Positions 7,018 through 62,223 of a DNA stretch of 64,000 bases are shown piece after piece. Both the position numbers and the translations under genes were made by a program. This DNA is from Eledone cirrhosa (lineage: Eukaryota): NCBI GenBank assembly GCA_964016885.1, contig OZ024746.1:39680001-39744000 (forward strand), in the 5' to 3' direction. The notes below the pieces were generated by a model that saw only the letters and a list, made by a program, of their open reading frames with translations, was not told where the DNA came from and ran no database searches. The first letter of the stretch is position 1. The number at the start of each line of letters is the position of its first letter.

Positions 7018-7119
<102 letters not shown>

Positions 7120-7193: not shown

Positions 7194-7294
<101 letters not shown>

Positions 7295-7530: not shown

Positions 7531-7579
<49 letters not shown>

Positions 7580-7723: not shown

Positions 7724-7886
<163 letters not shown>

Positions 7887-8671: not shown

Positions 8672-8718
<47 letters not shown>

Positions 8719-11090: not shown

Positions 11091-11093
<3 letters not shown>
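10781..11093. mobile_element. Fold-back HHR element, family A copy 1
   Basis: The inverted arm 10781-10950 carries a minus-strand HHR with a mutated core (CTGATAA). It joins a tailed arm 10951-11093. Near-identical to 35945-36358 and 62222-62490, with (TA)n flanks. Confidence 0.85.
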
Positions 11094-11132
<39 letters not shown>

Positions 11133-11146
11133 TGTGTGTATGTATA

Positions 11147-11244
11147 CAGGGTGTCCCAAAAATGCATACATACTTTGATTACTTGTACAGGCAATATTTA
11201 TTGAAATATTGTTGAAGTGTGTATACATTTTTTGAGACACCCTG
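11147..11244. mobile_element. Tc1/mariner-type MITE
   Basis: TA|CAGGGTGTCCCAAAAATGCATACA...TGTATACATTTTTTGAGACACCCTG terminal inverted repeats. Confidence 0.8.
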
Positions 11245-11246
11245 TT

Positions 11247-11353
<107 letters not shown>

Positions 11354-11638
11354 TCATTCATGGTAAAGTAATAGTTGAAGTAGCATGTTGTTCGTAGATT
11401 TGCGAATGCATGACAGAGCTCTTATTTGTCTCTTCACTGACGCAAATGAGATTGATCCCTAATAATACTGACAGCTCACTTGTGGAACAACTAAACAACT
11501 CAATGGGTTTAGCTTGACTATTGGGCATTCTATCCTATATTATCTACTACTCACTACTCACCCTAAGTATGGAATACTAAGTTGAATAATGATCTAACTA
11601 ATGTTAAATCGTATTATCTGCATTTTTTGTTGAATCAC

Positions 11639-11727
11639 CAGTCTGAAGAGCAGATCGATAATGGAATCAAGACCATAACTTTTTATGGGTGACCCTGAGC
11701 CAATCCTCTCCGAAACGCTTGTAACAG
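11639..11727 (+). ncRNA. Degraded type I hammerhead ribozyme
   Basis: CAGT-CTGAAGA-[GCAGA...CCATAA/TTATGG...TCTCC]-GAAA-CGCTTG-TA-ACAG. The core is intact but stems I and II have mismatches. Confidence 0.55.
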
Positions 11728-11885
11728 ATTGATACAAGATTAAAATCTAACTATATGTAAACGAAATTCCATCGTTTTTCTTAATACAATATATACAGCC
11801 TATCTGTGCATTGAGTGGTCATTTTGGTACCATCACCAGTAATTCACTGAATCACATACAATATATATATATATATATATATATA

Positions 11886-12089
11886 GTGAAGGCGTGTGGC
11901 TGAGTGGTTCGCAATCGTAAGGTTGTGAGTTCGATTCCTGGACCAGGTGATGCGTTATGTCCTTGAGCAAGACACTTTATTTCACGTTGCTCCTTCTACC
12001 TGGAGTTGCGGCCGATAGATAGTATTAGCAATTGGAAAGACCAACGGAAACATTGTTCCCTCGGTCCGATTTGACGAAAATCGATCGTT

Positions 12090-12090
<1 letters not shown>
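11886..12090 (+). mobile_element. tRNA-derived SINE, second family
   Basis: GTGGCTGAGTGG A-box, GAGTTCGATTCC B-box and a GTCCTTGAGCAAGACACTT domain. Related minus-strand copies lie at about 14085-14255, 15040-15160, 26150-26395 and 53850-54185. Confidence 0.75.
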
Positions 12091-12127
<37 letters not shown>

Positions 12128-12129
12128 GG

Positions 12130-12350
12130 CTACGTGTTTTCTTCTCACTTTTATTCCTCATTTTCCTCGTCCCTTCCTCTTCTCACTCTTTTCTTTCTGT
12201 TTATCTTCTATTTCTAACTCTATCTTCTGATGAAAGACTAGTATCCGAAACATCAATTATCTCTTCCTGGTATTTCAAGCGTTAAACTAATATATTTCTT
12301 CAATGTACTGTATCGTTTGCTATGTTATTTCTGTTCACTATTTACATACT
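12130..12350 (+). mobile_element. HHR-bearing repeat, family B copy 2
   Basis: TCTT-CTGATGA-A-AGAC-TAGT-ATCC-GAAA at 12223-12250, after a pyrimidine-rich tract. Homologous to 1664-1870. Confidence 0.7.
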
Positions 12351-12357
12351 TACATGA

Positions 12358-12446
<89 letters not shown>

Positions 12447-12695
12447 CTTGAGAGATAGTGTTTATGTGTTCATAAACTAAAATCCAAATACAACCTCAAA
12501 GTTCAAAGGTCATTAAGTGCTTGAGTACAAAATTATAAATAACTTCTTGTTTATGTAACAGAAGGCGACAATGTGTACATATTCAATGTTCCTTAAGAAA
12601 ATGTATAAAAGATAGTTGTATATGATATTCTTTTCAGAATCTGCTTTGTTAATCAACAAGTCAATTCCTGTTCAGCCAAAATATAACAGGGAGAA

Positions 12696-12730
<35 letters not shown>

Positions 12731-13149
12731 GGGGTGGATAATGGGTACTGATTTTGTACATTCTATGCTTCGAACGACAACTGTTAGTCGTTTAAAACGA
12801 AAGATGTACAGGGATTTATGTATCTTTACATTTAGGAATATTTTGTAAATACAACAGTTTACTTCCTCTTATTTGTGAGTAATATTGTATAGATTTCTAC
12901 TTCTTCCGTTCTCTGTAACTGTTTGTAGAGTCATCGTACTAAAGTTAATGTTAAGAACAATAGAAAATGTTCAATTAACATTTACAAAAACTACGCAAAT
13001 TAGTAACATAAAGAAAATCTGTTAACTTGAGATTTTATTATCACACTTCTTTAAATATCACTGATACTATATTATAATGTCTAATTATTTAGGCATACAG
13101 CGAAAGATGATCTTTTTTCAAGCCATGTCCTATCTTCATCTTTCCACCT

Positions 13150-13365
13150 CGTGTACAGGTTCCTCGAAACATTACTCGATAGAGTGCGTAACTCGGAGAA
13201 CAGAGAGTCACTCCAGGTAGAGCCGCTACTTCTCCGAATTGAGAGATCACATAGCTCTGATATTATGGGCATATGGTTAGAATGTCTCGGGATAGAGTCG
13301 CTGGATACATTTTACGGGCAAAATCAGGGGTAGACCCCGAGCAAGATGGTTAGATAACATCCATG
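13150..13365 (+). mobile_element. RTE-clade LINE 3' ORF fragment (frameshifted)
   Basis: The translation LDRVRNSENRESLQVEPLLLRIERS, continuing in shifted frames to GHMVRM...RWLDNI, resembles the post-RT C-terminus of RTE elements. Confidence 0.65.
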
Positions 13366-14588
13366 AGCTTGGCTGGTCTCACTCATCATTCATCCTTTCT
13401 GCATATTAGGTGCAGGCATAGCTGTGTAGCTGAAGAATTCGTTTTATTAACATCTGTTTCTTGGTTTCACCCAATTACGAGAAACTATGGGAAAATGCTT
13501 ATTTCTACAGATTCTAGTTGACCAAATTTGTTAGAAATAATGCCGAAGCCTTGTCGTCTGGAGGAGCGTCTTTCTCCGATTTTTAACGGCGTAAGTCTTA
13601 AGCTAGAAAATCGCAAAGGCTGTGCTTTAGAAAGGAAGTCCCTTGAATCCATATGTATTAGGCCTTATCACACTCGCCAACAACAATACAGTTCATAAAT
13701 TGATTGGCTCGTTGGAAACAGGTCAGCATAGACATTATTAGAATTAATAAATAATTAAGTATGTTGATTACAGGGAGGATTTATGTTTACACCTGTTAGC
13801 TATTTGTTGCTAGGTGGAATGAACTGGTTTGGGTTATGTCTTGATTATATACATAATGTAGTAGTGGTGGGGGTATATCAATTATCGCTTCCTCGTTGTT
13901 TAGTTAGACATATCGATTTTCAATATTGACAAAAGACAATGTATTTGGGGGGGGGGGTTAATTATATGTTAATTATATCCTCTTCAGTACTTGATTGATG
14001 CCTTATTTTATCGAATTCAGACGGATGAAAAGAAAGGTAAGTCGACACCGTTGTGATTTGATCTCAGACCTCACTCGCTTACCAAGTGGGGTGGACCTCG
14101 TCAAATCGGACCAAGGAAACAACGTTTCCTTTGGTCTTTCCATTGATAATACTATCTATCGGTCGCAACTCCTGGATAGAAAGAGCAGCGTGGAATAAAG
14201 TGTCTTGCTCAAGGACACAACCTCACGATTGCGAATCCAACTCTCTAACCATGCACATACACAATACATAAAGAGCCGTAACTAAAGATATTTTGTCCAA
14301 CGCTACATTCTTTTTAACAATCTACCGCTATAGCCAGACATTGATTCCTACAGATTGCATTTTTTTACTGTATTTATTTCTAATAAAATATAATTGGTAT
14401 GGTATTATATAATGCAGATTGCTAAAATTGTTGTTCAATTTCCTATCGTCTTCGACAGCAATATAGCAATATACTGGAGCTTATTTTCGCCATGATAAAG
14501 GACGGAAGGAAAGGCCACCTTTTGGTTATGAATTTACTTCATCGACGCACAAGCTTGGGCAGGATATCTTGCTAAGATTAGCAGTCAC

Positions 14589-14984
14589 CAGACCTGTCAA
14601 CTCACCCCGTCGGATGGGGAGATCTCCCATTTACTTTGGAGTGGGTGAGAGACGTCTTCTCTTGTGAAAATGGGTTTAGCTTTCATTATGTAAAATCTCC
14701 CCGGTGGATTGGCAGTATCGGTAGAGAGTCGGACACCATGCTTTGAAGCATAGAGTTACGTCCCTTTATGATCTGAGTTCAAATCCCGCCGAGGATAACT
14801 TTGCCTTTCATCCTTACGGGGTCAATAAAATAAAGTACCAGTAATGTACTGGGTAATTGCTGGCCTTGTGCCTAAAATAGAAACAATTATGTAAAATCTC
14901 CCCATTTTGCCTCATTTCCTCCAGTTTTGGAGCACTTTTTTTCATGGTACTCATCGTTTGGATTTTTAGAGGTTGGCAGGTCTG
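14589..14984. mobile_element. Non-autonomous hAT-type DNA transposon
   Basis: TIRs CAGACCTGTCAAC / GTTGGCAGGTCTG with a perfect 8-bp TSD GCAGTCAC (14581-14588, 14985-14992). Confidence 0.85.
14703..14885 (+). mobile_element. SINE (Nin/Deu-like family) nested in the hAT element
   Basis: A near-full SINE flanked by the 18-bp TSD ATTATGTAAAATCTCCCC (14685-14702, 14886-14903). Confidence 0.9.
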
Positions 14985-15728
14985 GCAGTCACCGATGCAT
15001 GCAAGTATCCCTTCTCCATGACATCGACGTTGCCCAAAGGAAAGGCTTACAACTTGGCGGTAAAGTGAATCAACGTAAAAATATATTGTCTTGCTCGAGG
15101 AAACACTACGGCGCCCAGTTCAGGAATTGAAGTCCGAACTATACGATCGTGAGATCAGCATCTTACTATGAAATGACGACATGATAAAATACCTGTAATA
15201 TAACATTTCTTTTTTTAAGGTCTATGGCATCGACTGTACATCTCTCTCCTTTATAAAATTTGGCTTTGAGCCTGGACGAATGAAATCAATAACATAAAAT
15301 AAGCATGGAGCGGTTGTAGGAAATTCGGGCAACAATAATTTGGCAAGAAACTAAATTTCCAAGACTAAGACAATAACAAAAATGCAATTATCGATAATAT
15401 AACCAATTGGCATTTTGATTGAAGATATACTAAAGCAAATATTTATATAAGTATTTACCGAAGAAAAATATATCTGTAATTAGATTTTCTGGGATTCTTT
15501 ATTATGTTGTGTAATATTTGCCAATAGATTTACTGAAACAAATATATCATTCAATGCAAACATGTCTGTTAATGTATGTATGTATATATGTATATATGTA
15601 TATACTGTGTATGTATGTATATATATATATATATATATATGTGAGTGTGTGTGTGTGTAAATATATAGATATATGAATATATATTTATTTATTTTTTTTT
15701 TTTTTTTCATATATATATATATATATAT

Positions 15729-16158
<430 letters not shown>

Positions 16159-16164
16159 CCGGTT

Positions 16165-16295
16165 AGTTTTGCCCGTAAATACTTTCCTGAGACATTATAA
16201 CCACATGTCTGTAGTATCAGAGCTGTAATCTCTCAATTCGGAGAAGTAGTGACTCTACTTGGAGTAACTCTCTGATATCCGAGCTACGTACTCTA
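16165..16295 (-). mobile_element. RTE-clade LINE fragment
   Basis: The reverse complement aligns to 13178-13325. Confidence 0.65.
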
Positions 16296-16419
16296 GTGGG
16301 TAACTTACTCTGGGGTCGATTTAAACGACTTTCCTCCTCCCCTTTAAATTATATCAAAAGTAGAAAGAATTATTATTTGTTTATTGGTATATATACAAAT
16401 GTGTATGTATGTGTATATA

Positions 16420-16572
<153 letters not shown>

Positions 16573-18647
16573 ACACACTTCCAAACTTGTAGATATTTAT
16601 ACATGCATATTTCCTTCCCGCTTTTGACCTTAGTCTTGCGTATTTGGGGCCGTTGACATCTCTAACTTGCAATGTATTTTTTTATCATATATTTGTGTCA
16701 CGTTCTTGCACTTTAAAATTGTGTGTTTACTTTATGGGGCGCCGATTTGGTAAAGTCGGTGAAACATCGGTATGTGTTTCAACTCTACCTTCCGACGCTC
16801 TACGCTCTGTGTTCAAATCCTACCACAGTCAACTTTGTATTTCATTATTTCAAGGTTGATAATTAAAGTATCAATCCAGCAGTGGGGTCGATATGTATGT
16901 CTCCCTTCTCTTTCTCCTGAAATAAATTGACTGTGTTTTGCCTTGCAGTGGCATGAACTTCTTTAAGCTTAATTGCCCAAAATATATCATATATTACGAT
17001 GGTGCCACTTTGGTTCCATCAGAGGTTCAGGGTATTTACAAATAGTATGATTTCAACAGTTGGCACAAACAAATTCAAAGACTCAGTCTTCGGTGATATC
17101 TGAGTGCTTTTAAGGAATTAATTTCATAGTGCTATTACCATAGCGAAATTCTAGATTCACAGAATTTGGTGTATAGATTCGGTTTGAATCATTGAGATAT
17201 CACATTTTTTTAACATTCCTGGTTACAGGAGGTTCTCCTCCTTCTCCTCCTTCTCCTCCTCACCCTTCGTCCCATCATCATCATCATCATCATCATCATC
17301 GTCATCATCATAGTTAATGCTTTTATTGACAAAAATACTACAAACAGCAACAATTAACAACGAAGCAATCATTACTTTCATGCATAAATAAATAATTAAA
17401 TCTGTTGCTTACAGGTAAGACTTATGCTTACACCTGCTAGCTATTTTCTGCTAGATACAATGAACTGGTGTGATTTACGTGTCTTGGTCATATACATAAT
17501 GTATTAGTGGTGGTGGTGGTACACCAACCATCATTTCCGCAGCCGTTTGTCAGATATATTGATTTTGAGGGTGGTGTATACTGAATTAAACCTATTCCAG
17601 TACTCGATTGGTGCTTCATTTTATCGAATTCAGAACAATGAAAGGCAAAGTCGAAATTGTTGGCATTTTAATTCAGAACATACAGCCGTATTTAAAGTTG
17701 TTGTTTTTTTTTTTCTTTTGTTCAACGCTCTAGTGTTTCTGACAAGCTATTATTATGGCCAGATATTGATTCGACCAACTTCAATATTGGGGGAAAGGAA
17801 AATCGATTATATCAAACCCAGTATATGACTGGTACTTTATTTTATCGACGGCAGAAAGATGAAAGGCAAAGTTGGCCTCGGCCGGAGTTAAAACCAGAAT
17901 GTAGAGAGCCGAAACGAAATACTGAAATATATTTCACCCGACATACTGCCGATTCTACCAATCCTCTGCTCTTTTGTATTATAATTAAATTAAATATAAT
18001 TATCAACGATATAATCACTACAGTCAAGCATAGTGACCTTCAAAATTAGAAACAACTTCAATCTTATTGATTTGCCACTTCGCATATAGTCAATTATTTG
18101 AAACCGAAATACTTATTTCATCAGAAAATATTCATTCCTTTGAAGTTGTACGATTTCAGATTGTTCATTAGAAGATAAACAAATTGTAATTATGTTAGTT
18201 TAGAAGTTTAGAAGTAGAATATATTTACACTAATTGTGTAGTTGTTTTAAAACAATAACAAAAATGCTCAAAAGAAAACATCACTTGTGTGCCCTTGAAT
18301 TTGATAGAAAGATATTGAAATCTGAACTTTGAGGTTTGACTCTTTCTCCCCATTTAAATCAATAATATCTAGTATTATATCAACATATCAACATACTCTG
18401 ATGTTTGATAACAAGAAAGGAACAGTAATCTTAGTTACTTCCTCTTCTTGTGATGATTTATTTTGATGCCATATAACATACCAAATTATCTTCTTATTTA
18501 CCAATGATATACAATACACACACACATATTGTATATATATATATATATATTGTAAGAGCAGATTAAAGTTTAAGCAAAGAATCGCTATTTTCACCCTTAA
18601 CGGGGTCTTCTGAAAGTGTAATCGTGTTAGTTTAGAGGTTTATATAT

Positions 18648-18683
<36 letters not shown>

Positions 18684-20367
18684 AGAGTAAAAAATATATA
18701 CACCTTGCGTGCAATATTTATTAGAATGCTGTATATAGTTTTTCAACTGAGAAGGCCAGAAAGTGTTACAGAAACACAACGAAAAGTCATATGTTGCCAC
18801 TATCAGAGCATATGGGAATTAAGTACATGAATAACAATATTGAGTAATGTGTCCTGCAAGTGTTATCTGAGTCCTGAAAGAATTTAGTCTAGGATATTAA
18901 TTACCTTCATCACAAGTGTCGTGTATTATAGTTATGAAAGTTGCTAAAGGTTGTATTGTACCAGTTTCTACTTGCATTATACAAGATATTATGTAACTTT
19001 GATATCAACATTACGTGAATTGTTTACCGTTAATTTATCAGTTCCATATCGATCTAAAGTACTTTCATAATTACACACACACATACGCACATACACATAT
19101 ATACACATATACTAGCACGCACACATATATACCACGGATTGCGATACGTTCTACTAAAATGGCTTGTAAAGATTTATACAAATAAATAGAACTGATAAAT
19201 TGTTTTAAGAGATTTTAGTTTCTATTTAATTAGTCGAAACTAAAACTACCAAAAAATAGGATTTAAACAATTTACTTCTTTAAGGAATCCTAGAGTTTAC
19301 CGCTATTAACCTGACATTTCTGCAGCTATTTTTAAGTTGTTTAAAAAATCCAATTCAGCTGACAGGTGGGAGCTATAATCTCTTAAAAGCTATATGTGCG
19401 GTCAATTACAACTAAACCCCTTAACTTTGGTTCATTGATTCATTAATACACAGTGATCTTTATTTTACTATATTTTACAACTTGTTTGTTGGGAAAATAA
19501 TAGCAATCTACATATATCATTTTTTTTTCTAAATTAAAGTATGTCACTTTTTTCTGAAATTTCACTATACAATGAAAAAGATCGCATTTGTATTATAAGT
19601 AATAAATTCAAACTGAAATATTATTATTGTTTCATGACATGTATCAGATTGCCCATTACAGCATTTAACATGCTAGAGATTTGTGCTAACGACTGAAATA
19701 ATTACCAGGAAAGGGTTAAAGCATTCAGAATTTCATAACTTCAGTCGCATTTGACTAAAAGCAAAATGAAACGTTGTGAAAGGATAGAGGTCGCGAAAAA
19801 AAAAATACTTCAATGGTGCAGGGGTTAAGTGGGTATCAATTTTAGATGCTTAAGGAGTCCCTAATAAAAGAAATCAGTTGAAAGTAGCAAAAACACTTAA
19901 GTGAAGTTGAAAGACGCCGCTAAGTACCAACACGATTTACACTGGAAGATGTTTACTAAAACATGTTAAGTGGTAAGGCTAATCTATTTGGTTGAATGGA
20001 TGACCAACTCATTATTTTTCTTTTCAAACCGTTTATATGTTGTGAATTTGACCATCTAGATTCTGGTTAACAAGGTTAACTCATTAAATAAAACAACAGA
20101 GGACTAACTAAGGACACTAAATATAGATGAATAGGTTCAACAAGGAACAAACTGCAACAGCACTACGCTGTGGGAATGAAAATATATAGTGTCTTTTAAA
20201 GTTATATATGATGATTTTATTAAAAGTTCTAGATGCCACAAGAAAATAAATGAGCAAAGATTAAAGGGATGACACATTGAAAGAAACTAAATTATAAAAT
20301 TCCGAGTCTAAAAATACTCCAATTCATGTGCTTAAATTAGAAACCAAAGATCGAACAAAATGCAGCG

Positions 20368-20499
20368 TAGCATTTAGTTAGGGCCCTTATAGCATTTAGT
20401 TAGGGGTCTTATAGTATTTAGTTAGGGTTCTTATAGCATTTAGTTAGGGCCCTTATAGCATTTAGTTAGGGCTCTTATAGAATTTAGTTAGGGCTCTTA
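20368..20499 (+). repeat. 22-bp minisatellite, 6 copies, inside a SINE
   Basis: Unit TAGCATTTAGTTAGGGCCCTTA with variants, followed by the SINE B-box. Confidence 0.9.
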
Positions 20500-20653
20500 A
20501 ATGTTCTGAATTCAAATCCCGCTGAGGTCAACTTAGCCTGAGGTCAACTTCCTTCTGGAATCGACAAAATAAAGTACCAGTAAAGTACTAGGTACAATAT
20601 AAGCGACTTTCCCCTCCCCACAAACATTGTGCTAACCTTGTGCCTAAATTAGA

Positions 20654-20847
20654 GGGCGGTGGATTGGCAGTATTGGTAGAGGGTCGGACGCCATGCTTTG
20701 CAGCAAAGAGTTACGGCCCTTTCCATTCTGAGTTCAAATCCCGCCGAGGTTAACTTTGCCTTTCATCCTTACGGGGTCGATAAAATAAAGTACCAGTAAT
20801 ACACTGGGATAATTGCTGGCCTTGTGCCAAAAGTAGAAACAATTATT
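20654..20847 (+). mobile_element. Full-length SINE (Nin/Deu-like family)
   Basis: GGGCGGTGGATTGGCAG...AGAAACAATTATT, directly behind an older SINE. Confidence 0.9.
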
Positions 20848-21803
20848 AGACGATCCTATTGATGATGATGATGATGATGATGAAGACCATCATCATGATG
20901 ATAATGATGATGGGGTAGAGGAGAAGAAAAATGGGGACGGGGAGATTTCTTAGCAATGAAACCTAAAAGATATGAGGGAATATGGTGTGTTCGTGACCTA
21001 CGTGACACCGCTTTAGTTATTATATACAGGAAGAAATATTTCTTCATCGAAATATTTTTCGAGCATAATGTGCTTGGCGCCTATTAAGAATACTTATATA
21101 ACTTTACAAGAGATCAATTTAGTTGTAGCAGCATAGACTTGTCTTAAATGAAACTGCATTGGGTCTACTTAGTCAACATTGCTCTTTGTAATCTGGCGTT
21201 GTATGTTTTTTTGGCTTCATGACTCTGTACTTTCAATGAAATTCGGTTTGCATACAGCCGCCTACCTATGTTTATGTTTGTAGTATAAAGATGGTGTCAG
21301 AATAATAAGATGATTGAGTGTAGTCATCAGGGAATAAAAATCATCCTGCTATTCTTTTATGATTATCATATAAGTTTTGTCGCGTTAAAACCCTTTACGG
21401 CGACAAACAGTACATGGTAATCATATAGCACCCAATGGCACGTTAACCTACAAACATATGAAAATACAGTGCTGGGTATAAAAAAAATGGGTTGATTATA
21501 TTTGATTAATGTACTCAATGAACCAGTTATGTGAGAGAATCGGATGGAAACATTTGAGTTTCCACTTGACATTATAGTCAAGGTTTACAAGTGCATATAT
21601 ATATATGTGTGTGTGTGTGTATGTATATATATATATATGAGAGATAGAGAAGAGGTGCATGCAGATATACCCACCTACAGACATATATATATATAAATAC
21701 AGTGAGTAACCGTGACTACACCAATGTGTATAAATATATACATATAATCTAATGTGTATGTATATAAACAGTAAACATGTCAGAAAATACGAATTTCTCT
21801 GTA

Positions 21804-21863
<60 letters not shown>

Positions 21864-22718
21864 AGCATACACACATGATACACACAGTTGTAGGGGAAGA
21901 TAACAGTCGGTTGACTGGTATTAAATTTTGATACTGTAACACCAAAATATGAAATTTATCTCAGTAAAATTCGAACGCACAAAAGGAACGTTAGTATATA
22001 CCGTAAAGGAAGAATATTTCTTAACACTCTACTGTGTCTGCCATTGATATTCCTTCTTTAAAAGTCTAAGTTATCTGAGAAAATTATTTGTAAAATCAAC
22101 AAACAAACATTCCTCTAATCAAAATATTTGGTAATTAAAGATTCTCGAGAATCGTTTGAAAATAAACTACGAATATTTTAGAGTCGTGTCTGTCTATTCC
22201 AGATGATTTATTCGCTTAGTAAAATGTATGGCTATCGCATAACTACATTTACATTTACTATTTCATGGGACAAACGGAACTAGAAGTTAAATGTTGACGA
22301 AAAGTATGTCATGTCAACATGATAGACAAGTGGAAATGTTTTATATTGGCAGAAACAGTCATAGATATACCGAAAAGAGATAAAAAGAGAGAGAGTTTAA
22401 AGCAACATATATTAAATGTAATTGTTTCAAGATTTTTTTCCTAGGAGCCTACCTAAATACGCATCTGGAAACTCGGTTATTCACCAGCTTCCAACTTAAA
22501 GATAGCACCACACCAATTTATTAACGTTCTCCTTTCTTATTTCATATATGTTGTTGAAAGGATATTTGATCCCTTTGTTACCATTAAAGGGATTAGGTGA
22601 GTTTACAGATGTTGTAGATTTCGTTATTTCGTTATTTATGCTTTTTTACATACTCGGACACACACAACCAAACACACACACACACACGCACGCACGCACA
22701 CATACACACACACACACA

Positions 22719-25130
<2,412 letters not shown>

Positions 25131-25276
25131 TTTTGAGTTTATGTTGGTTGTATACCAACACCTCAGTATGCAGGCTGGAGCACTCGACGAAGTGCGCAGG
25201 TTGGTTTGGTTACTCCGGAGTAGTGTAAAATAAAGTTAAATAAAAGTCAAATGATTAAAATTTAGCTTCGTTTATT

Positions 25277-25331
25277 ACTGCTATATATATTTCAGTGACA
25301 GCCATCTTTGGCTGTGACCTCTTCAGGCAGT
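25277..25331 (-). ncRNA. Type I hammerhead ribozyme (mirror copy)
   Basis: Exact reverse complement of 25527-25581. Confidence 0.88.
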
Positions 25332-25526
25332 TTGAATTAGTATGGTATAGACAAGTACATATGTTGTTTAGGTGTATGATATTGTCAATACTCTGATATG
25401 CCCAGTTCCTTGCTGGGTTGTTTCCCCAGTGAATTAACAACCCAGCAAGAAACTGGGCATATCAGAGTATTGACAATATCATACACCTAAACAACATATG
25501 TACTTGTCTATACCATACTAATTCAA

Positions 25527-25581
25527 ACTGCCTGAAGAGGTCACAGCCAAAGATGGCTGTCACTGAAATATATATAGCAGT
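25527..25581 (+). ncRNA. Type I minimal hammerhead ribozyme
   Basis: ACTGC-CTGAAGA-GGTCACAGCCA-AAGA-TGGCTGTCACT-GAAA-TATATA-TA-GCAGT. Predicted cleavage after 25576. Confidence 0.9.
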
Positions 25582-25659
25582 AATAAACGAAGCTAAATTT
25601 TAATCATTTGACTTTTATTTAACTTTATTTTATATATACATATATATATATACATATAC

Positions 25660-25723
<64 letters not shown>

Positions 25724-25724
<1 letters not shown>

Positions 25725-26092
25725 CAAAGGAATTGTGGTAAGGAACCAGATGGACCATAACGCACCAGAGTACTCAATACTTAGGGTAGTAGAGTGGGAA
25801 ATAGGAAAAAGTATGACCCCGACGGCAGAGCTCAAGCCGTTTCGACGGCTATTTCTGGACTAAATTAGAATTTTTAGCCTGGTGAATAAATAGCTGAACT
25901 TGTCAAGGGGGTACTTCCTTATATGGGCAGATCGTAGTTGTCAAGAGGATTGGTTGACAACTACAATCTCCCCATATAAGGAAGTACCCCCTTGACAAGT
26001 TCAGCTATTTATTCATAAGGCTAAAAATTCTAATTTAGTCCAGAAATAGCCGTCGAAACGGCTTGAGCTCTGCCGTCGGGGTCATACTTTTT

Positions 26093-26097
<5 letters not shown>
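25724..26097. mobile_element. Fold-back HHR element (family E copy 1)
   Basis: Palindrome 25801-26097 (loop 25945-25953, a few mismatches) with a tail at 25724-25800 on the left arm only, and (TA)n flanks. Confidence 0.9.
25986..26082 (+). ncRNA. Hammerhead ribozyme with variant U3-A8 core (mirror copy at 25816-25912, minus strand)
   Basis: CCCC-TTGACAA-[G..GCTATTT...AAATAGC..C]-GAAA-CGGC-TTGAGCTCT-GCCG-TC-GGGG. Predicted cleavage after GUC at 26077. Confidence 0.75.
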
Positions 26098-29428: not shown

Positions 29429-29600
29429 ATAGGAAAAAGTATGACTCCGACGGCATAGCTCAAGCCGTTTCGACGGCTATTTCTGGACTAGAAGTAGCCG
29501 TCGGGGTCATACTTTTTCCTATTACCCACTCTACTACCCTAAGTATTGAGTACTCTGGTGCGTTATGGTCCACCTGGTTCCTTACCACAATTCCTTCGTT
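29429..29600. mobile_element. Short fold-back element, family E copy 2 (ribozyme core absent)
   Basis: Inverted arm 29429-29490 plus tailed arm 29491-29600, matching 25724-26097, with TA flanks. Confidence 0.85.
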
Positions 29601-35944: not shown

Positions 35945-35947
<3 letters not shown>

Positions 35948-36358
35948 GGAGGTGAGTTTTATTGTAGTACAATAAAGCAATGCAGATATCGGATAAGAAG
36001 CACTCTACAGTTTGTAGGACTGGAGTATAAATAAGATGGTTAAAAGAGTTCCATGTATTCTATTATGCGCATTTCAAAAACAAATATCATCATTCAATAA
36101 TATTTGTGTTTTCATCAGATAAAATAGGAAGACATGATATGAAGGTTAAAAAACACTTGTGGATAGTGCAGTTTTAAATCAACATATGATATGTTGATTT
36201 AAAACTGCACTATCCACAAGTGTTTTTTAACCTTCATATCATGTCTTCCTATTTTATCTGATGAAAACACAAATATTATTGCATGATGATATTTGTTTTT
36301 GAAATGCGCATAATAAAATACATGGAACTCTTTTAACCATCTTTTGTTCTTATATATT
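35945..36358. mobile_element. Fold-back HHR element, family A copy 2
   Basis: Palindrome 36033-36343 centred on a single G at 36188, with a tail at 35945-36030 on the left arm only and (TA)n flanks. Confidence 0.9.
36250..36320 (+). ncRNA. Type I minimal hammerhead ribozyme (mirror copy at 36056-36126, minus strand)
   Basis: TATTTTAT-CTGATGA-AAACACAAATAT...ATATTTGTTTTT-GAAA-TGCGCA-TA-ATAAAATA. Predicted cleavage after 36312. Confidence 0.9.
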
Positions 36359-36586
36359 GTATATATATATATATATATATTGGAATGGTGAAGCTAAATC
36401 TGACTAATGGAAAAGGGGTTAATTCTACTGATGCTGTGAATTAGTTCATTCTAAATCATATGCTACCGGTGCCTTAAGAAAGCAACACCAAAATTCAGCA
36501 CGGAGCATATCAAAGAATTGAAATAACATACGTAAGCTTTATTCCATCGTTATGTTTTTCTGGGGAGTTTTCTGTTCAACTTCTAC

Positions 36587-36653
36587 CTGTCTGATGAGGT
36601 CATAGCTGTTGGATAATGGTTATCACCGAAATATATATATATATATATAACAG
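36587..36653 (+). ncRNA. Type I hammerhead ribozyme with (TA)8 stem III
   Basis: CTGT-CTGATGA-GGTCATAGCTGT-TGGATA-ATGGTTATCACC-GAAA-(TA)8-TA-ACAG. Confidence 0.85.
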
Positions 36654-36980
36654 TGACTATGAATAAACGAACTTAATTTTAACCTGTTGTCTTACACTTC
36701 TTGCTTATATATATATATAATAGTATACCATCCTTTGTGAAACAGGTTTATTTTTTGAAGTTCGGACTGATCTGCTGAAAAGGTTTGAATTTTGGAATTT
36801 AAACTTGTCTAGGCACCAGGGTAGTTGCCGATATACGTCTGTGAGTATAGATTTATTATTTTTTCAGATCGATACAGGCAGACTATATGTATTTGAATTA
36901 AGGTATTTCTATCTGGCTAAATTATTGTCAATTTGCAATAAAAACACATTAGTGTTGATCATATATTTTTTATATTAACT

Positions 36981-37025
<45 letters not shown>

Positions 37026-38137: not shown

Positions 38138-38488
38138 CTGAAAGAGATCGGTTATGCTTAGAACTGTTTCATTCGTAAGACCATCCAGTGAGACCATTTT
38201 ATCGTGGCTAGAAGACTTACATAATAATAATAATAATAATGCTTTCTTTATTAACCACAAGGGTTTACATAAAGTACACATTAAGGACAGTACAGGACAA
38301 TACAGGACGGTACAAATTGGCATTTCTGCGTGTAAAAAAAACAGAGGATGTAATAAAAAAAATAACAATGAAAAATTCCCCAATAGGGGGGAGACTTCCG
38401 AGGGACATTTGTGAAGAAAGCCCATTAAAAGGCCACAGTGACCCTGACCACCAGGGCAAGTGCCCTCTCCCAGTTTTCCACCTTTAAT

Positions 38489-41400
38489 TTACAGACACAT
38501 ACTCAGAGTAGGCCCATTCATTTGGGCCATACTTGCTTCTCTCACCCATCTTTCAACAAAATGCTGGGAAGAGAGCACTTCCCTCTCTACCCTGATTTTC
38601 CTTTTCAAATGAAATTTGAAAAAGTTAATCAGGGCATCACCGAAGAGGTAAGTGCTCGTCTTCAGCCCTTTCAAACGTGTCCACCATACTATCTCTTTCG
38701 CCATGGCCACAAGACAGATAAAAACTGCCTGCCCTTCCCGGCTAAAGGAAGAAGGTGGGGCAATCCTCACGATGGACTCTGCTGATAGCTGGATCCGTCC
38801 TACACGTGACAGCAGGTGTGCGTCATAAACCCACAAGTCAGCAATGCTCGGACACTGGACGAGTGCGTGCAGGACGGTTTCGTCGCCCTGCGCGCATCTC
38901 GGACATTCCCGGCTGACGGCACCTCCATGCCTGTAGTTTATCCCGAACTGGCAAAGCTCCTCGGTAGCACTGCCAGACCAGGGATTTCTGGAAGTTGTCC
39001 ATAGGCCCCGGCCCGAAAGTCCTTCCGAAGAGATTGGCTAGTTGATTTTCGTCGACGCCTAGAGTTTCTCCAAGTACGTCGTCGCTCTTCCCCTCCACTA
39101 ATGCTCTATAGAACGCCAAGGTGGAGTTTCCACCGATCACATTGCCCGATTGGTCGAGCACTGTGAGCGCCTGAAGACATTCCAGTCTCCAAGCGATCCC
39201 TCTCGGTCTTCGCTTGACCCAGGACTGCAGCACCGTCAAAGAGACGAGCTGGAGAAAGACGCGTCTAGCAAACGGCGACCACACCTGATCACCGTCGAGG
39301 AAGAGGTGGAGATGTCGTAGCCTGAGCGCGTGTCTGCGCATCATCATCCACGGCATGTCCAGGCCTCCACGTAGCGGGTGTTGACAGCAGATGGACCTTC
39401 CACAAAAAGCGAAAGAGCAAACGCTCCAGCGCAGTGAGGCGGGGCTTACGACAAGGTACAACGGTCAGGCGGTAGTAGATGACGGATGCGATATACGCGT
39501 TAGCCCCCTCCACTCGACCTTTCAGGGATAGCTTCCTCTCCGCCCATTTCTGGGTGAGAGAAGCCACCCTGCTCGTCACCTCGTCGCAGTTTTTGTCCGT
39601 CTGGAGGTCCGGACTGAACCAAACCCCTAGCAATTTAACCGGTCCGTTCGTCCAGCGCCCGACGACGCTGTTGGACGGCATGGACCTGCCTCTCCAGGTG
39701 CCGAGCTGCAGGCCCACTGACTTTTCCTGGTTGATCATTGCTCCTGTCACCGCTTCGTATTATCTTAGTGTAGTGCCGATCGCCTCGATGTGTTTGGCGT
39801 TCGACACCACTACGGTGACATCGTCCGCATATGCTAACACGGATCTTCCTAGTTCGCGCGGGACCCCCTCAACGTCTCCAGTTTGTGCAGTAATGGCTCG
39901 AGAGTCAATACGTACAAGAGGGACGAGAGGGGACATCCTTGGCGGACCGAGCGCATGATGTTGAACGGTTCTGAAAGGTGACCGTTCACTCTCACTACAG
40001 AGCAGATGTCGCTGTGCATGGCAGCGATCCAGCATCTGAAGACGGGCCCAAAGCCAGCCGCCCTCAGGACTGCCGCTAGGTAACAATGGTCGACCCTATC
40101 GAAAGCTTTCGACTGATCTAAATTGATCAAAGCCCCCCCCCCCCCGTTCCAGGTTCCCTACCTACTCTCTCTACGATGTATCGCATGAGGTGGAGGTTAT
40201 CGTGGATGGATCTGTCGGGAATGGCGCACGTCTGCGCCTCTCCCACCAGACCACCAACGACAAGCGCCAACCTCTTTGCTAGCACCTTGGCCAAAATCTT
40301 GAACTCTGTGTTTAGCAGAGTTATGGGCCTGAAATTATCTATGTTATCCCCCTTGTTCGGATCCTTTCTCAGCAGCGCCACAGCTCCTCGGCTCACAGAG
40401 CTGGGAATCCTCCCGTTCTGTTGCCAGTTGCAGTAGACGTCCGCCAAGAGGCCTCCGAACAAGTCTGGCATCTGTACGTAAAGTTCATAGGGCAGACCAT
40501 CCAAACCAGGCGATTTACCCCTTGTGCAGCCAGTCATTGCCTCCCGTACTTCAGCGGCTGTTATCGGCTTTTCGAAACACTCCGCCTCAGTGGCCGAGAG
40601 CCGCGGCAGTCCGTCGAGGTAGGCACTAAAGTCCATCCCTCGATTCAGCCCGCCGCTTCCCCCGAACAGCTGGGCGAAGTGTCGCTGGAAAGCTTCACAC
40701 ATTTGCCCGGTGTCGAGTAGCATGCGCCCGTCATGGTCCACCAAAGACCGGATCGTGGCTTTTTTGCCACGACGCGCCTCCGCCACTCGGGTCCATTGAA
40801 CGGCTTTCGTCCCCACGTGTCTGAGAGCATGCACCCTAGCTCTGACAACGCAGCCTTCGTGCTTTGCATTGAATAATTGGTCAAGGGCCAATTTCGCCGC
40901 AAGTACGTCGGTCGCGATGCCTTTGCTAAGCGCCTCATCTAATTTTATAACTAGTTCTCCCTCTGCTCTATTTTTCTCTATTGCTAAAGCCTTACTAAAT
41001 CTAATGGACTCTATTCTAATCGCTCTTTTCAGAGCAAACCACCACTTGTTGTTGACGATGGCCCCCGCCAACACCCGCTTAACTAGTTCGCTAATCCGGT
41101 CTTTGTAGGCCTTGCGCGCTGGTAAGGACGCGTTTAGCTTCCAGTAGCCGGGTCCTCGTCTATGAAGCCTATCTAAGTCAAGCACACAGATCACGAATTT
41201 GTGGTCCGTGTAGCTGACTATCTTGAATTGTGGACAGCCTATGCTAGACCTATCTATTTCCCTACAAAATACTCTATCTAGATATGATCTGGATGACCCT
41301 ATGCAATTTGTCCAAGTCCACATTGGCACATTCAGGAAATCCAATCGGTACCTGTCAGACAGTTTAAAACGCCTGAGCAGGTTGGTGAGGCTCTTTCACC

Positions 41401-41878
41401 CTCCTCCCCTATCCACTGATCCCATACAGTCCCAGCATGCATCTAAGATCCCGTTCCAGTCGTCCCCTAACACTAACGAGCGGGACGTTCCAAGAAAGGT
41501 CTCCAGACGCCGGAAGAAATCAGGCCGCCCTGCTCCTGTCGGGGCGCGACGGCCACTAGCCTGAAAGCTTTCCCGTCTCCGCTGGTCACATCCAGCACCA
41601 CCAACTTACCTTCTGGGTCCAGGAAGATGGCCCGTATGGCGAGATCAAAACCTCTCCGAAAAGGCACAGCAACTACTCCCCCGATCCCGGACGGCTGGGA
41701 GATGCGTACACATCGTAGCCGCCGAAGATCGGTGCGAAGCCCGTGCTTCGGAGATTCTGGTCTCGCTGATGGCCATTACATCTATGTTTAGTGACCTGAG
41801 GTCGTTGAGCAGGTGGCCCTGCTTCCATGACGACCCCAAGCCACGCGCATTTATGCTGCCTATTCTGAGTGAGCTCAT
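38489..41878 (-). pseudogene. LINE-A ORF2 (AP endonuclease, reverse transcriptase, C-terminal zinc finger), multiple frameshifts
   Basis: LRIGSINARGL, YLDRVF, TDHKFV, KSPGLDGL, FRPITLLNT, LDQSKAFDRV, RQGCPLS and LAYADD are spread over several frames. Confidence 0.92.
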
Positions 41879-41914
41879 GTTGAAATGGAGTGGAAAAGAT
41901 GGGAAAGACCACTT

Positions 41915-43930: not shown

Positions 43931-46900
43931 AATAATAATAATAATAATAATGATTTCTTTATTGGCCACAAGGGCTGACATCAAGAAAAACATTACAGAC
44001 GGCACAGGACGGGACAGGACGGTAGGATGTGGGTTTTGTGCGTGTAAATATTTTTATTATTTATATAAGAAAAGAAAAAAAGGACATAGAAACATATATA
44101 TATATAAACAATAAAAATGAAAATTGAAACAATGAAAAATTCCCCAATAGGGGGGAAACCTCCGAGGGTTACTCGTGGCGAAAACCACACAAAAGACCAC
44201 GGCCACCCTGACCACCAGGGCAAGCGCCCTCTCTCAATGTTTCCATTTCTCAAACTACAGACGTATATTCAGAGCGGTCCCGTTCACTCGGACCATTCTC
44301 GCTACATTCACCCACCTTTCAACAAACTTGCTAGAAGGCAGCACTTGCCTCTCCACCCTGATTTTCCTCTTCAAGTGAAACTTGAAAAAGTTAATTAGGG
44401 ATTCGCCGAAGGGGAAAGTGTCTGTCTTTAACCCTTTTAACCTTGTCCACCACACAATCTCTTTCGCCATGGCCACCAGGCAGATGAAAACCGCCTGCCC
44501 TTCCTCCTCGAAGGAAGACGGCGAGACCATCTGCACAATGGACTCAGTCGATAACCGGATCAGTCCTACACGCGACAGCAACTGTTCGACATACCTCCAC
44601 AAGTCAGCAATGCTCCGGCACTGAACGAGTGCGTGCACGACGGTTTCGTCGCTCTGCGCGCATCTCGGACAGGCTCGGCTGATGGCACTTCCGTGCCTGT
44701 AGAGCTTATCTCGAACCGGCAACGCTCCCCGGTAGCACTGCCAGGCCAGGGATTTTTGGAAGTTATCCATAGGCCCTGGGCTGAAAGTTCTCCGGAAGAG
44801 AGTAAACAGCTGATCTTCTTCGACGCCCAGGATCTCTCCGAGAATGTCGTCGCTCTTCCTCTCCACTAGTCCTCTATAGAACGCTGGGGTGGATGTTCCA
44901 CCGATACTGGTGCCCAGCTGGCAGAGGGCAGCGAGCGCCTGGAGACATTCCAGTTTCCAAGCGCTATCCCTCGGTCTTTTTCTGATCCAGGACTGCAGCT
45001 CCGTCAAAGAGACGAGCTGTGGGAAAACGTGCCTGGCGAATGGCGACCACACCTGTTCACCGTCAAGGAACCACCAGAGATGTCGCAGCCTCAGCGCATG
45101 TTTGCGCATCATCAGCCATGCCATGCCTAGTCCTCCACGCAATGGGTGTTGACAGCAGATGGATCGTCTGACCATGGGAGCGCGTCTCTTCCACAAAAAG
45201 CGGAAGATGAGGCGCTCCATTTTGGTGAGAGTTGAGCTGGAGCAAGGGACGACGGTGAGGCGGTAGTAGATGACGGATGCGATATACGCATTCGCCACTT
45301 CCGCCCGGACTTTCAGGGACTGCTTCCTCTCGGCCCATTTCTGGGTGAGGGAGGCCACCCTGCTCGTCACCTCGTTCCAGTTTTTCTCCATCTGGAGATC
45401 CGGTCCGAACCAGACCCCGAGCAATTTAACCGGTCCGTCCGTCCAACGCCCCACGACGCTGTCGGACGGCATGGACTTGCCTCTCCAGGTGCCGAGCTGC
45501 AAGCCCACCGACTTTTCCTGGTTTATCTTTGCTCCTGTCACCGCTTCGTATTCTTTGAGAGCGGTGCCGAGCATCTGGACGTGCCTGGTGCTCGACACCA
45601 TCCTAGTTCGCGTGGGACGCCCCTCATCGCCCCCAGTTTGTGCAGTAACAGCTCGAGAGCCAATATGTACAAGAGGGACGAGAGGGGACAACCCTAGCGG
45701 ACTGAGCGCATGATGCTGACCGGCTGCGACAGGTGACCGTTCACCCTCACAACTGAGCAGATGTCGCTGTACATTGCTGCGATCCAACCCCTGAAAACGG
45801 GCCCGAAACCGGCTGCCTCGAGGACCGCCGCCAGGTACCGATGGTCGACCCTATCGAATGCTTTGGATTGATCCAAGTTGATCAGGGCCCCACCCGTTCC
45901 AGGTTCCTTAACCACCCTCTCTATGATGTATCGCATGAGGTGGAGGTTGTCGTGTATGGATCTGTCCGGAATGGCGTATGTCTGCGCCTCTCCCACCAGA
46001 CCCTTGACGACAAGCGCCAACCTCGTTGCTAACACCTTGGCCAAAATCTTGAACTCTGCGTTTAGCAGGGTTATGGGCCTGAAATTATCGAGAACATCCC
46101 CCTTGTTCGGGTGTTTTCTCAGCAGCGCCACTGCTCCCCGGCTCACAAAACTGGGAATGCTCCCGTTCTGCTGCCAGTTGCAGTAGACGTCCGCCAAGAG
46201 GTCACCGAACAAGTCTGGCATAAATGCATAAAGCTCGTAGGGCAGACCATCCAAACCTGGAGATTTACCCCTTGTGCAGTTAGCCATCCCTTCCCGTATT
46301 TCACAGGCTGTTATTGGCTTTTCGCAACACTGTACTGCGGTCGTCGAGAGCCGAGGCAGTCCGTCGAGGTATGCACTGAAGTCCATGCCCCGATCCAGGC
46401 CGCCGCTGCTCCCGAACAGTTCAGCAAAGTGCTGCTGAAAATCTTCACACATCCGCTCGGGTTCGAGCATCACACACCCGTTTTGGTCAGACAAAGACCG
46501 AATTGTGGCTTTGTTGCCACGTCGCGCCTCTGCCACCCGGGCCCATTGGACGGCTTTTGTCCCCTCGTGTTTCAGAGCACGCGCTCTATCTCTGACAACG
46601 CAGCCTTCGTGTTTTGCGTTGAAGAATTGGTCGAGTGCCAATCTCGCCGCAAGCACGGCGGTTGCGATGCCTGTCCTAAACGCCTCTTCTAGCTTTCTGA
46701 CTAGCTCTCCCTCTACTCTATTTTCCTCTATCACTACTCCTTTGCTAAACCTAATCGACTCTACTTTAATTGCCCTTTTCAGGGCGAACCACCACCTGTT
46801 GTTGACGACTGCTCCCGTCAACGCCCGCTTAACTAATACGCTAATCCGGTCTCTGTAGGCTTTGCGCGCCGGGAAAGACGCGTTCAGCTTCCAGTAACCA

Positions 46901-48384
46901 GGCCCTTGTCTATGAAGTCTGTCTATGTCGATCTCACAGATCACAAATTTGTGGTCTGTGTAGTAGACTATTTTAAATTGTGGACAACTTATACTAGCCT
47001 TATCTAGTTCCCTGCAGAATACCCTATCTAGATACGATCTGGATGACCCGATACGGTTTGTCCATGTCCACATTGGCACATTCGGGTGATCCAGTCGATA
47101 CCTGTCAGACAGTTCAAAACGTCTGAGCAGGTTGGTGAGGCTCTTGCACCCTCTTCCCCTATCCACTATCTCCACACAATCCCAGCGTGCATCCAAGATA
47201 CCGTTCCAGTCGCCCACTAACACTAAAGAGCGGGACGTTCCAAGAAAGGTCTCTAGACGTCTGAAGAAATCTGGCCGTCCTGCCCCTGTTGGGGCGTAGA
47301 CGGCTATTAGCCTGAAAGCATTGCCTTCACTGCCGGTCACGTCCAGCACCACCGACTTACTTTCTGGGTCTAGGAAGATGGCCCGTATGGCGATATCCAA
47401 ACCTCTCCGAAAAAGGACGGCAACCCCTCCCCCCGATCCTGGACGGCTGGGAGATGCGTATACATCGTAGCCGCCGAAGATCGGTGCGAAGGCTTGTGCT
47501 TCGGAGATTCTGGTCTCACTGATGGCCACCACATCTATGTTTAGTGACCTGAGGTCGTTGAGCAGGTGACCCTGCTTCCAAGATGACACCCAGGCCACGT
47601 GCATTTATACTGCCTATTCTGAGTACGGCCATGTTGGATGAGAAACGGGGCAAGTGAGAAAGGGTCACTTAGCTTGATCGTGTGGTGAAGGGACAGTAGA
47701 ACCGTCCCTTTCGCTGGTCATGGGTGATTCCAAGAGGATTTCAGTGTATATCCTCTTGGTAGCCGACCCTCTGAAATCTCCAACTGCGTTGGGGAATTTT
47801 GTTTTAAAGGTTTGTACTGTTCTATTGAGATTTCAATGATGCTTATGTTTGTTGGGAGAGTTCTTGGTGTTGGTGGGGTGTAGTAGTTTTTTTCTGTGAT
47901 GTCTGTGTGCTGCTGCTTTATATATTGTATGAGATCTTTTTTTGCCATGTTTATGGCTGTGTACTTTTTTGGGGGGAGGGGGGATTTTGTTGCTGTTTTC
48001 TTCTTGTTGCTGTTTGGTGTGTGTGTTTTGTTTTGTTTGCGTTGTTGATGTTTTTGGTGATGCTGGTGGTGGTGTGGTTGTTTTTGTCAGTGGTGCTTGT
48101 GGTGGTGATGGTGATGGTGATGGTGTTGCTGCAAGTTTCCTTGCTGCCTTTACCCCTCTTTGTATGCCTTTGCTTTTGGAGGGTGAATCTAAGGGTTTTT
48201 TTGTTTTTTTTTGTTTTTTGCCACTTCACTCCCGCCTCAAATTCCATGTCGGATTCCGTGGCGTCTGGGAGGGGTATGTGCTCCACGGCTGTTGGTGGTG
48301 GTAGTGGAGCCCTCTTCGGTAATTTTGTTGCTGGTGTAGCTACTTCAAATGTAGCTATTGGTGTTGCCGCCACTGATGCTGCTC
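43931..48384 (-). mobile_element. 5'-truncated L1/Tx1-clade LINE (LINE-B), a related subfamily
   Basis: (ATT)n tail at 43931-43951, 3'UTR and ORF2 colinear with LINE-A, and an ORF1 C-terminal remnant at about 47670-48384. A SINE head abuts it at 48385-48451. Confidence 0.9.
44255..47632 (-). pseudogene. LINE-B ORF2 (APE-RT-CCHC), inactivated
   Basis: Starts MAVLRIGSINARGL, has an early frameshift, a TAG at 45694 and a deletion of the YADD segment near 45600. C-terminal CPRCAQSDETVVHALVQC. Confidence 0.92.
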
Positions 48385-49888: not shown

Positions 49889-49894
<6 letters not shown>

Positions 49895-50419
49895 GAAATG
49901 ACAGGCGGCTGGATTTGTGTAAATCCTTGAAAGGTTTATTATACTATGATCATTTCAATGACCGGGTTCCGTATGAATCCGGTGATATCATCAGGTATTC
50001 GAAATATAATACGTGAATGTAATAGATAAAATCCATGGGGCTGAAAAACGAGGACTCGAGGGCGACCGGCTGAGGTTGAAGGAACAGAATAGCGGTCGCC
50101 CTCGGGTCCTCGATTTTCAGCCCCATGGATTTTATCTATTACATTCACGTATTATATTTCGAATACCTGATGATATCACCGGATTCATACGGAACCCGGT
50201 CATTGAAATGATCATAGTATAATAAACCTTTCAAGGATTTACACAAATCCAGCCTCCTGTCATTTCATTATAATATTTAACTCCGTAATAGCACCACCAA
50301 CTACAAAAACAAAGACGGTTGAACTGCTTTACGTTGAGTACTCTCTATATTATTGCATTACGATTGACCATACGGAATAGACCAGCTCTATGCAGTGGTG
50401 AACCTCAAACCTGAATAAA
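49889..50419. mobile_element. Fold-back HHR element (family F)
   Basis: Palindrome 49889-50272 with arms of about 180 bp (3 mismatches seen) and a 24-nt loop at 50069-50092. A tail at 50273-50419 is on the right arm only, with (TA)n flanks. Confidence 0.9.
50163..50220 (+). ncRNA. Type I minimal hammerhead ribozyme (mirror copy at 49941-49998, minus strand)
   Basis: ATAC-CTGATGA-TATCACCGG...CCGGTCATT-GAAA-TGATCA-TA-GTAT. Predicted cleavage after 50216. Confidence 0.88.
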
Positions 50420-57201: not shown

Positions 57202-57465
57202 GTGGTGACAGTCAAGTTTGCAATTTTCAACAGTTGAAAATTGCAAACTTGACTGTCACCACGCATTATGAACCTGAAGATTGCGAAAGCATGAAAGTAC
57301 TTGTTCAATTAACACTTAACATTTAATATTCTACCATACTATTTCATTCTAATACCATTATAAATTTTAAAGGATTGTAAATAAAACGAGTAAATCAGAC
57401 AAAGTTGGAATTCCTTTTATTCATATAATCTTCTATACACAATCATACACATCCGTGTATATTTA
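57202..57465 (+). mobile_element. HHR element with a 30-bp perfect 5' fold-back (family G)
   Basis: Perfect palindrome 57202-57262 (centre 57232), then an HHR, then an AT-rich 3' part running into (TA)n. It follows a truncated SINE head at 57125-57198. Confidence 0.75.
57269..57307 (+). ncRNA. Very compact type I hammerhead ribozyme (39 nt)
   Basis: TGAAC-CTGAAGA-T-TGC-GAAA-GCA-T-GAAA-GTAC-TT-GTTCA. Confidence 0.8.

Positions 57466-62221: not shown

Positions 62222-62223
<2 letters not shown>

Follow-up and report, generated by a model that had tools for sequence, protein, structure and literature searches.

Hammerhead ribozymes of Penelope-like retroelements (PLEs) are dispersed by the thousand in animal genomes. 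Those carried in the pseudo-LTRs (pLTRs) of metazoan PLEs are described in the accessible text of Cervera and de la Pena 2014 (PMC4209133), which also reports that a single Schistosoma PLE hammerhead is inactive and that it cleaves once a helix III has been added, though for the most part in magnesium that is not physiological. Three further papers (PMC6466107, PMC6765202, PMC7229834) contain the known principle that lengthening stem III makes a hammerhead independent of dimerisation; the last of them gives cleavage values of 22% for an axolotl hammerhead with two pairs and 6% for one with a single pair. In work on an anole PLE, catalytic mutants showed no reduced insertion in vitro (PMC11167929). 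Traits ascribed to PLEs in the accessible part of PMC8557442 include 5' truncation, inverted copies and TA targets.

The 64-kb stretch of DNA analysed here (hereafter, the window) carries at 36587-36653, on the forward strand, a type I hammerhead motif of 67 nt, recognised both in the sequence and by a descriptor scan (Table 1). The elements CUGANGA, GAAA and UH were found around a three-way junction, and stems I, II and III are able to form, with stem I open; three of the 12 pairs of stem II are G-U. Position A17 and the cleavage position at 36649 are numbered according to the standard hammerhead scheme, and the TA counts used below (eight here and three in the closest relative) leave out the TA of the cleavage triplet, the full tracts being (TA)9 and (TA)4. 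A strict descriptor returned six motifs in the window, and nothing at all in 100 local shuffles of it. Three other families of the window (D, B and E, see below; 36587-36653 left out) served to build a covariance model, which matched the motif with 34.6 bits and an E-value of about 2e-6, rank 9 of 23 matches, these E-values being rough and the model including the related family D. On the other hand, Rfam returned nothing at gathering level anywhere in the window, so that none of its hammerhead motifs was recognised there, and among the six Rfam matches with E up to 10 in 36200-36800 none was to a hammerhead family. Judged from its sequence, 36587-36653 is most likely a metazoan PLE hammerhead.

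Table 1. Coordinates of the hammerhead motif at 36587-36653, its host element and related features in the window.
Feature	Positions	Strand	Remarks
Stem I, 5' strand, CTGT	36587..36590	+	Descriptor scan
Catalytic core CUGAUGA, intact	36591..36597	+	Sequence and descriptor scan
Stem II, 12 pairs	36598..36627	+	C.C mismatch at pair 4, 4-nt loop, G10.1-C11.1
Core GAAA	36628..36631	+	Sequence and descriptor scan
Stem III, 18-nt self-complementary A(TA)8T	36631..36648	+	
A17 and stem I 3' strand ACAG	36649..36653	+	Predicted cleavage after 36649, triplet AUA
Whole element, 3' end of high-copy repeat, 325 bp	36381..36705	+	Homologous to 25428-25640
Left TA microsatellite, 21 nt	36360..36380		Likely insertion target; divides the element from the adjoining family B element
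Right TA microsatellite, (TA)7, 14 nt	36706..36719		
20 codons and stop, possible end of element ORF	36382..36444	+	Translation
AATAAA, likely polyadenylation-type signal	36662..36667	+	Followed by T-rich tail common to family D
Family D element, 403-nt tail-to-tail palindrome	25228..25630		5 arm mismatches, 4 at centre
Family D identical hammerheads, stem III (TA)3	25527-25581; 25277-25331	+; -	
Family B hammerheads, stem III TGCGCA	36033-36343; 62222-62484; 10789-11093		Inverted pair next to the motif under study, and two further insertions
Family E palindrome, two identical hammerheads	49893-50268		Stem III TGATCA, U.U at stem II base
Short palindrome, then compact hammerhead	57202-57310		3-bp stem II, GAAA loop
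Older palindrome, arms 89% alike	15857-16045		Two hammerhead-like motifs, stem III non-palindromic
Stem II pair 4 mismatch	25542/25561; 36601/36624; family B 36250-36320; family E 50160-50224		
LINE remnants, 82% alike	38377-41882 and 44141-47636	-	Endonuclease, RT and zf-RVT domains (second copy scanned)

The element that contains the motif is likely the 5'-truncated, dead tail of a PLE. Summed contig depth in public data is 124 at 36387 and climbs to 26,500 by the hammerhead, and the loose ends behind 36715-36719 vary among loci, most of them entering TA repeats; this depth gradient and the distinct 3' junctions indicate 5' truncation with a hammerhead-bearing 3' repeat. The position of 36381-36705 between TA microsatellites fits the bias of Neptune/Naiad-type elements for insertion into such tracts. 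In a masked self-BLAST of the window, the element had no self-match and no inverted or tandem partner. The fragment has space for about 20 codons at most, and the peptide at 36382-36444 may resemble a GIY-YIG C-terminus. A Pfam search of its two short frames returned no PLE domain and one chance-level YadA match, and neither RT nor GIY-YIG was found in 146 of the 179 non-LINE frames of at least 55 codons in the window. Because the fragment is so short and RT and GIY-YIG were not found, its identity as a PLE rests on its architecture.

The surroundings are AT-rich, animal-type DNA with 89 tandem-repeat rows, a dispersed SINE-like repeat, which may be octopus-like, and two related LINE remnants; of the 176 alternating A/T runs outside the four large arrays of the window, 27 reach at least 18 nt. 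The right flank of the element, 36720-36982, is another multi-copy repeat, whose end has an AATAAA, then a short tail, then a TA tract, and three repeat ends are stacked within 35945-36982. A palindromic repeat family, in which neither descriptor nor model detected a hammerhead, lies beside TA tracts at 25804-26094 and 29429-29599 and may represent a hammerhead-less Penelope-type end.

Six hammerhead families are present in the window, five of them with a self-complementary stem III, which is the known dimer design. We refer to the family of the 36587-36653 motif as family T and to that of the motif at 25527-25581 as family D. The inverted pLTR-like structure of the family D homolog at 25228-25630 is absent at 36381-36705, and families B, E and F also sit in palindromes similar to that of family D. 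Stem III is an 8-nt palindrome of differing sequence in families D, B and E, a 6-nt palindrome in the hammerhead at 57266-57310, and measures 18 nt at 36587-36653. The family B insertions at 62222-62484 and 10789-11093 have an extra tail segment in common, and the family B copy at 10819-10889 carries a core change, G8 to A. Outside the core, the 36587-36653 element was judged not to be homologous to the neighboring family B, with a score of 65 and a shuffle mean of 58.

Beyond the window, a family-specific hammerhead pattern had no matches in metagenome contigs, and a general hammerhead pattern found 114 loci in viral sequences, none of which came through the stem filter. In the metagenome data (5 of the 64 parts of the collection), the general pattern gave 116 loci with at least four TA units; five of these passed a loose filter and two were convincing (L176 and L201), sharing the same motif sequence, with a (TA)3 stem III and an extra base before G10.1-C11.1. 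No obvious PLE reading frame was seen by eye in 2 kb at L176.

The initial annotation had taken 36587-36653 for a diverged relative of 25527-25581, and rightly so, as the alignment with the 25527 element scores 160, whereas 500 shuffles averaged 69 and did not exceed 91, the homology comprising about 120 nt upstream and the 3' tail. The family D motif has stem I ACTGC/GCAGT, core CTGAAGA, GAAA, (TA)3 and TA, with a stem II of ten pairs and a C.C mismatch as in 36587-36653, and has a G-U where the latter has G10.1-C11.1. The difference between (TA)3 and (TA)8 in stem III was confirmed from the sequence, and both compensatory changes that had been pointed out are real: one in stem I (CTGC/GCAG to CTGT/ACAG, pair 1 going from C-G in D to T-A in T), the other in stem II, where pair 6 goes from C25544-G25559 to T36603-A36622. 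Across the 15 comparable pairs, nine substitutions change both sides of these two pairs and one side of four others with pairing kept, and break one; the broken pair, the fifth of stem I in the 36587-36653 copy, had been passed over in that annotation. Under random placement, the probability of at most one broken pair is 0.003, 0.012 or 0.07 at transition shares of 0.5, 0.67 and 0.9, and that of at least two double changes 0.08-0.23, depending on the assumed transition share. As a comparison of two sequences, the D/T covariation alone is suggestive and would amount to weak evidence for selection on the fold.

The further claim that covariation shows such selection held at a different level, that of families. 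In a set of five rows from the three independent families D, B and E, from which 36587-36653 was left out, both partners change in 11 of the 17 pairs, which none of 500 shuffles reached, and 97.6% of cells pair, compared to 37-53% in slid controls, a result flattered by the structure having been named from the same sequences. The inner bases of stem III covary as palindromes (TATATA in D, TGCGCA in B, TGATCA in E), and since a palindromic inner stem III is needed by a dimer helix and not by a monomer loop, this points to the dimer design as what was selected for in the parent elements. For retroelement families, sequence comparison thus supports selection on the fold, and the covariation and the TA expansion appear to belong to different stages.

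In four sequence-divergent families, stem II has at pair 4 a C that faces a pyrimidine without pairing, and the next pair is A-U. Located at the canonical end of stem II, this mismatch may be a stand-in for the loop 2 tertiary contact; no description of it was found in the accessible parts of the PLE hammerhead literature examined.

Tract length in other family T copies was approached with public runs carrying one organism label, namely the contigs of run X1 and three RAD runs, which contain at most 0.66 of the sampled words and may derive from another individual or a sister species. Family T is high-copy in these data (1101 contigs in X1; 706, 724 and 644 reads in the three RAD runs). Read depth over the tract was 0-0.9, compared to 250-290 directly to its left. 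As read mapping masked 36623-36658, tract length was derived from read geometry: RAD second mates are 150 nt long and start at AATT, and three control groups summed to 150, 150 and 151. Reads with a match start at 36568, which probably represent one dominant locus, numbered 179, 197 and 206 in three individuals, with a median loose end of 49 nt; a mixed group with a match start at 36581 comprised 42 reads in X4, with a median loose end of 62 nt and an agreement of 0.43. Both groups are exactly 10 nt short of the window distance to the AATT at 36675-36678, equal to five TA units, which implies (TA)3 provided that the reads start at the homologous AATT and that the deficit does not fall elsewhere in 36623-36678. 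That 77 contigs contain the spacer behind stem I favors a deficit inside the TA tract. One X1 contig gives a stem III of (TA)3 directly, with the family stem II end, an 8-nt duplication, then GAAA, (TA)4 and ACAG. On the other hand, one divergent contig spans the tract region, with 140 letters on 138 and 17 differences, and about one read crosses the tract in each of X5 and X6, so that long tracts recur at low frequency. From these sequences, most family T copies seem to keep (TA)3, and the long tract would not be a family trait.

The window copy also departs from its family outside the tract. Its letter is found in at most 8% of contig depth at no fewer than seven positions (36476, 36529, 36531, 36586, 36672, 36690 and 36704). 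At 36586 it has C, and most family copies have G (15,207 of 16,417 in contig depth; 220 of 271, 212 of 277 and 215 of 252 reads), which means that the fifth stem I pair has been lost. Compared with the family majority, these minority letters, that in stem I included, are read as signs of decay.

We consider it rather probable (about 0.74) that 36587-36653 belongs to a dead, truncated PLE tail whose (TA)3 became (TA)8 via neutral replication slippage after insertion. The active parents would have retained a short palindrome so that two ribozymes could pair via stem III and cleave in dimeric form, and families D and T would have diverged under selection on this dimer fold, as their compensatory changes support. 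A truncated T copy would have inserted alone among TA tracts and, released from selection on the fold, gathered the point changes seen against the family majority, among them the loss of one stem I pair, while its TA tract, the only microsatellite-like palindrome, would have slipped from three to eight units. The copy itself probably does nothing. Among the points that speak against this reading, the core is still perfect, and stem III is not palindromic in one of the six families (15857-16045).

An unlikely alternative, although the best of those considered, is that the long stem III was inherited from the active master of a minority subfamily, a lineage that had moved toward monomer cleavage and kept transposing. 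The divergent contig of similar length and the single crossing reads of X5 and X6 would fit such a subfamily, as would the occurrence of the window's minority letters in some contigs too (e.g., depth 59-87 at 36476-36531), and the accessible text of PMC4209133 describes fungal and protist PLEs with a long, monomer-active helix III. However, with 17 differences in the spanning contig, independent slippage explains it equally well, spanning depth is 6.5 compared to 11,000-26,000 beside the tract, and two read groups give (TA)3.

It is very unlikely that the tract length in this TA-rich genome is partly due to errors of assembly or base calling. Dinucleotide runs are error-prone, and nearly no public reads cross the tract at the window length; against this, an 18-nt run is short and five extra units would be a large error, the adjoining palindrome arms are near-perfect, and one contig of similar length spans the tract.

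Fold estimates (ViennaRNA), which consider secondary structure only and ignore tertiary contacts, magnesium and proteins, gave the isolated motif a predicted active-fold share at 37 C of 5e-4 for n = 3, 0.03 for n = 5 and 0.11 for n of at least 7, where n is the TA number, with similar shares at 15 and 20 C; going from n = 3 to n = 8 thus lifts the predicted monomer fold about 200-fold. The predicted response has its threshold between n = 4 and n = 6 and is flat above n = 7, so in these models it is a threshold with a plateau by n = 6-7 and not a dial. At n = 8 the active fold equals the minimum-energy fold in energy (-11.5 kcal/mol). Because stem III is a pure repeat, it can also pair one base out of register, engaging the cleavage-site A17, and this slipped form is predicted at nearly the probability of the active one (0.35 vs 0.38). 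The stem III hairpin is predicted at -1.2 kcal/mol and the intermolecular duplex at -15.2 kcal/mol, so that TA expansion would strengthen dimers too, and more than the hairpin. With the natural upstream flank, in which other folds are favored over the active one, the predicted probability of the active monomer fold was 4e-5 to 2e-3 in all 16 settings, since stems I and II mispair, whereas family D with (TA)3 in its natural flank (3e-4 to 1.4e-3 in 12 of 12 settings) is predicted to keep both stems. In the same fixed flanks, the models place n = 8 above n = 3 by a factor of 200 to 9,000. The motif has a folding z-score of -0.12, no better than that of shuffles, and family D one of -2.61. For the isolated motif, weak monomeric self-cleavage is predicted at high magnesium, and little in the natural context.

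These predictions bear on the initial annotation's proposal that (TA)8 may favor the monomer and that repeat slippage could tune self-cleavage. As an explanation of the locus, tract length would then be a selected, polymorphic dial from dimer-dependent to monomer-active that regulates a transcript. The proposed direction is borne out by the models (n = 8 above n = 3), the catalytic core is intact, and precedents exist in the engineered longer helix III of the single Schistosoma PLE hammerhead (accessible text of PMC4209133) and in the two-pair axolotl hammerhead with its 22% cleavage against 6% with one pair (portions of PMC7229834). Nevertheless, we regard such a switch as the least probable explanation, and a highly improbable one: the natural flanks are predicted to hold the active fold at 0.2% or less, with stems I and II misfolded, the dimer gains more than the monomer, the predicted gain saturates at n = 6-7, the slipped register competes, most copies seem to have (TA)3, this one shows signs of decay, the published engineered monomers cleaved mostly at non-physiological magnesium, and a host exon was recognised in none of the 146 non-LINE reading frames scanned.

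With neutral slippage in a dead tail as the most likely case, the locus matters little, being one slipped copy in a TA-rich genome, as mutation alone would yield. Tract variants nonetheless constitute a natural allele series for the question whether dimer-gated cleavage matters to PLEs: if young copies avoid long tracts while old ones drift, this would indicate selection against monomer cleavage, and should host transcripts be cleaved by long-tract copies, mutation of a microsatellite would act as a switch of ribozyme activity, for which no description was found in the literature searched. On a doubtful and more general reading, the TATATA dimerisation palindrome would be a microsatellite seed, and slippage past about five units would keep making self-cutting D/T hammerheads, a one-step route from dimer-gated to monomer-active ribozymes such as fungal PLEs carry, with the 36587-36653 copy as one such product, cutting read-through transcripts.

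Compared with the hammerheads in the accessible text of PMC4209133, the motif agrees in type I topology, the CUGANGA/GAAA core, a helix I of 4-5 bp, a long helix II, G10.1-C11.1, and palindromic positions 15.2-16.2 and loop 3. The hammerheads of that set are mostly solitary, from truncated elements, with some opposite-strand pairs 100-700 bp apart, as here, and as here they form sequence families full of compensatory changes. The unpaired base between 9 and 10.1, usual in that set, is absent at 36587-36653 and in two of its 56 representatives. The motif differs from these representatives in its helix III, an 18-nt (UA) palindrome, the longest of the 56 being about 10 nt; none of them, as drawn in Fig. 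S3 of PMC4209133, has a long UA run in helix III. The C.pyrimidine mismatch at stem II pair 4 in four families of the window is a further difference from the published hammerheads as far as that text covers them. In a search of the literature, no description was found of microsatellite growth inside a ribozyme stem.

With the hammerheads of fungal and protist PLEs, such as that of Serpula lacrymans (accessible text of PMC4209133), the motif shares a helix III whose length would permit folding as a monomer. There, the long helix III is a family-level trait with a monomer activity of 0.16 per min at 1 mM Mg2+, whereas the long helix at 36587-36653 is A-U only, register-slippable and apparently specific to the copy. 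Animal non-LTR retrozymes (PMC7229834; bioRxiv 10.64898/2026.07.22.740005) resemble the locus in that their type I hammerhead sits in a repeat that is short, AT-rich, non-coding and akin to PLE ends; unlike them, 36381-36705 has no head-to-tail tandem units, its relatives in the window being inverted 5'-truncated pairs, and in the absence of a tandem unit with hammerhead a retrozyme identity was rejected. A further parallel is to the dimer-dependent double hammerheads of ASBVd, newt and axolotl (PMC6466107, PMC7229834), in which a short palindromic stem III needs the dimer and a longer one allows the monomer; those hammerheads are expressed tandem or circular units, whereas 36587-36653 is a solitary genomic fragment.
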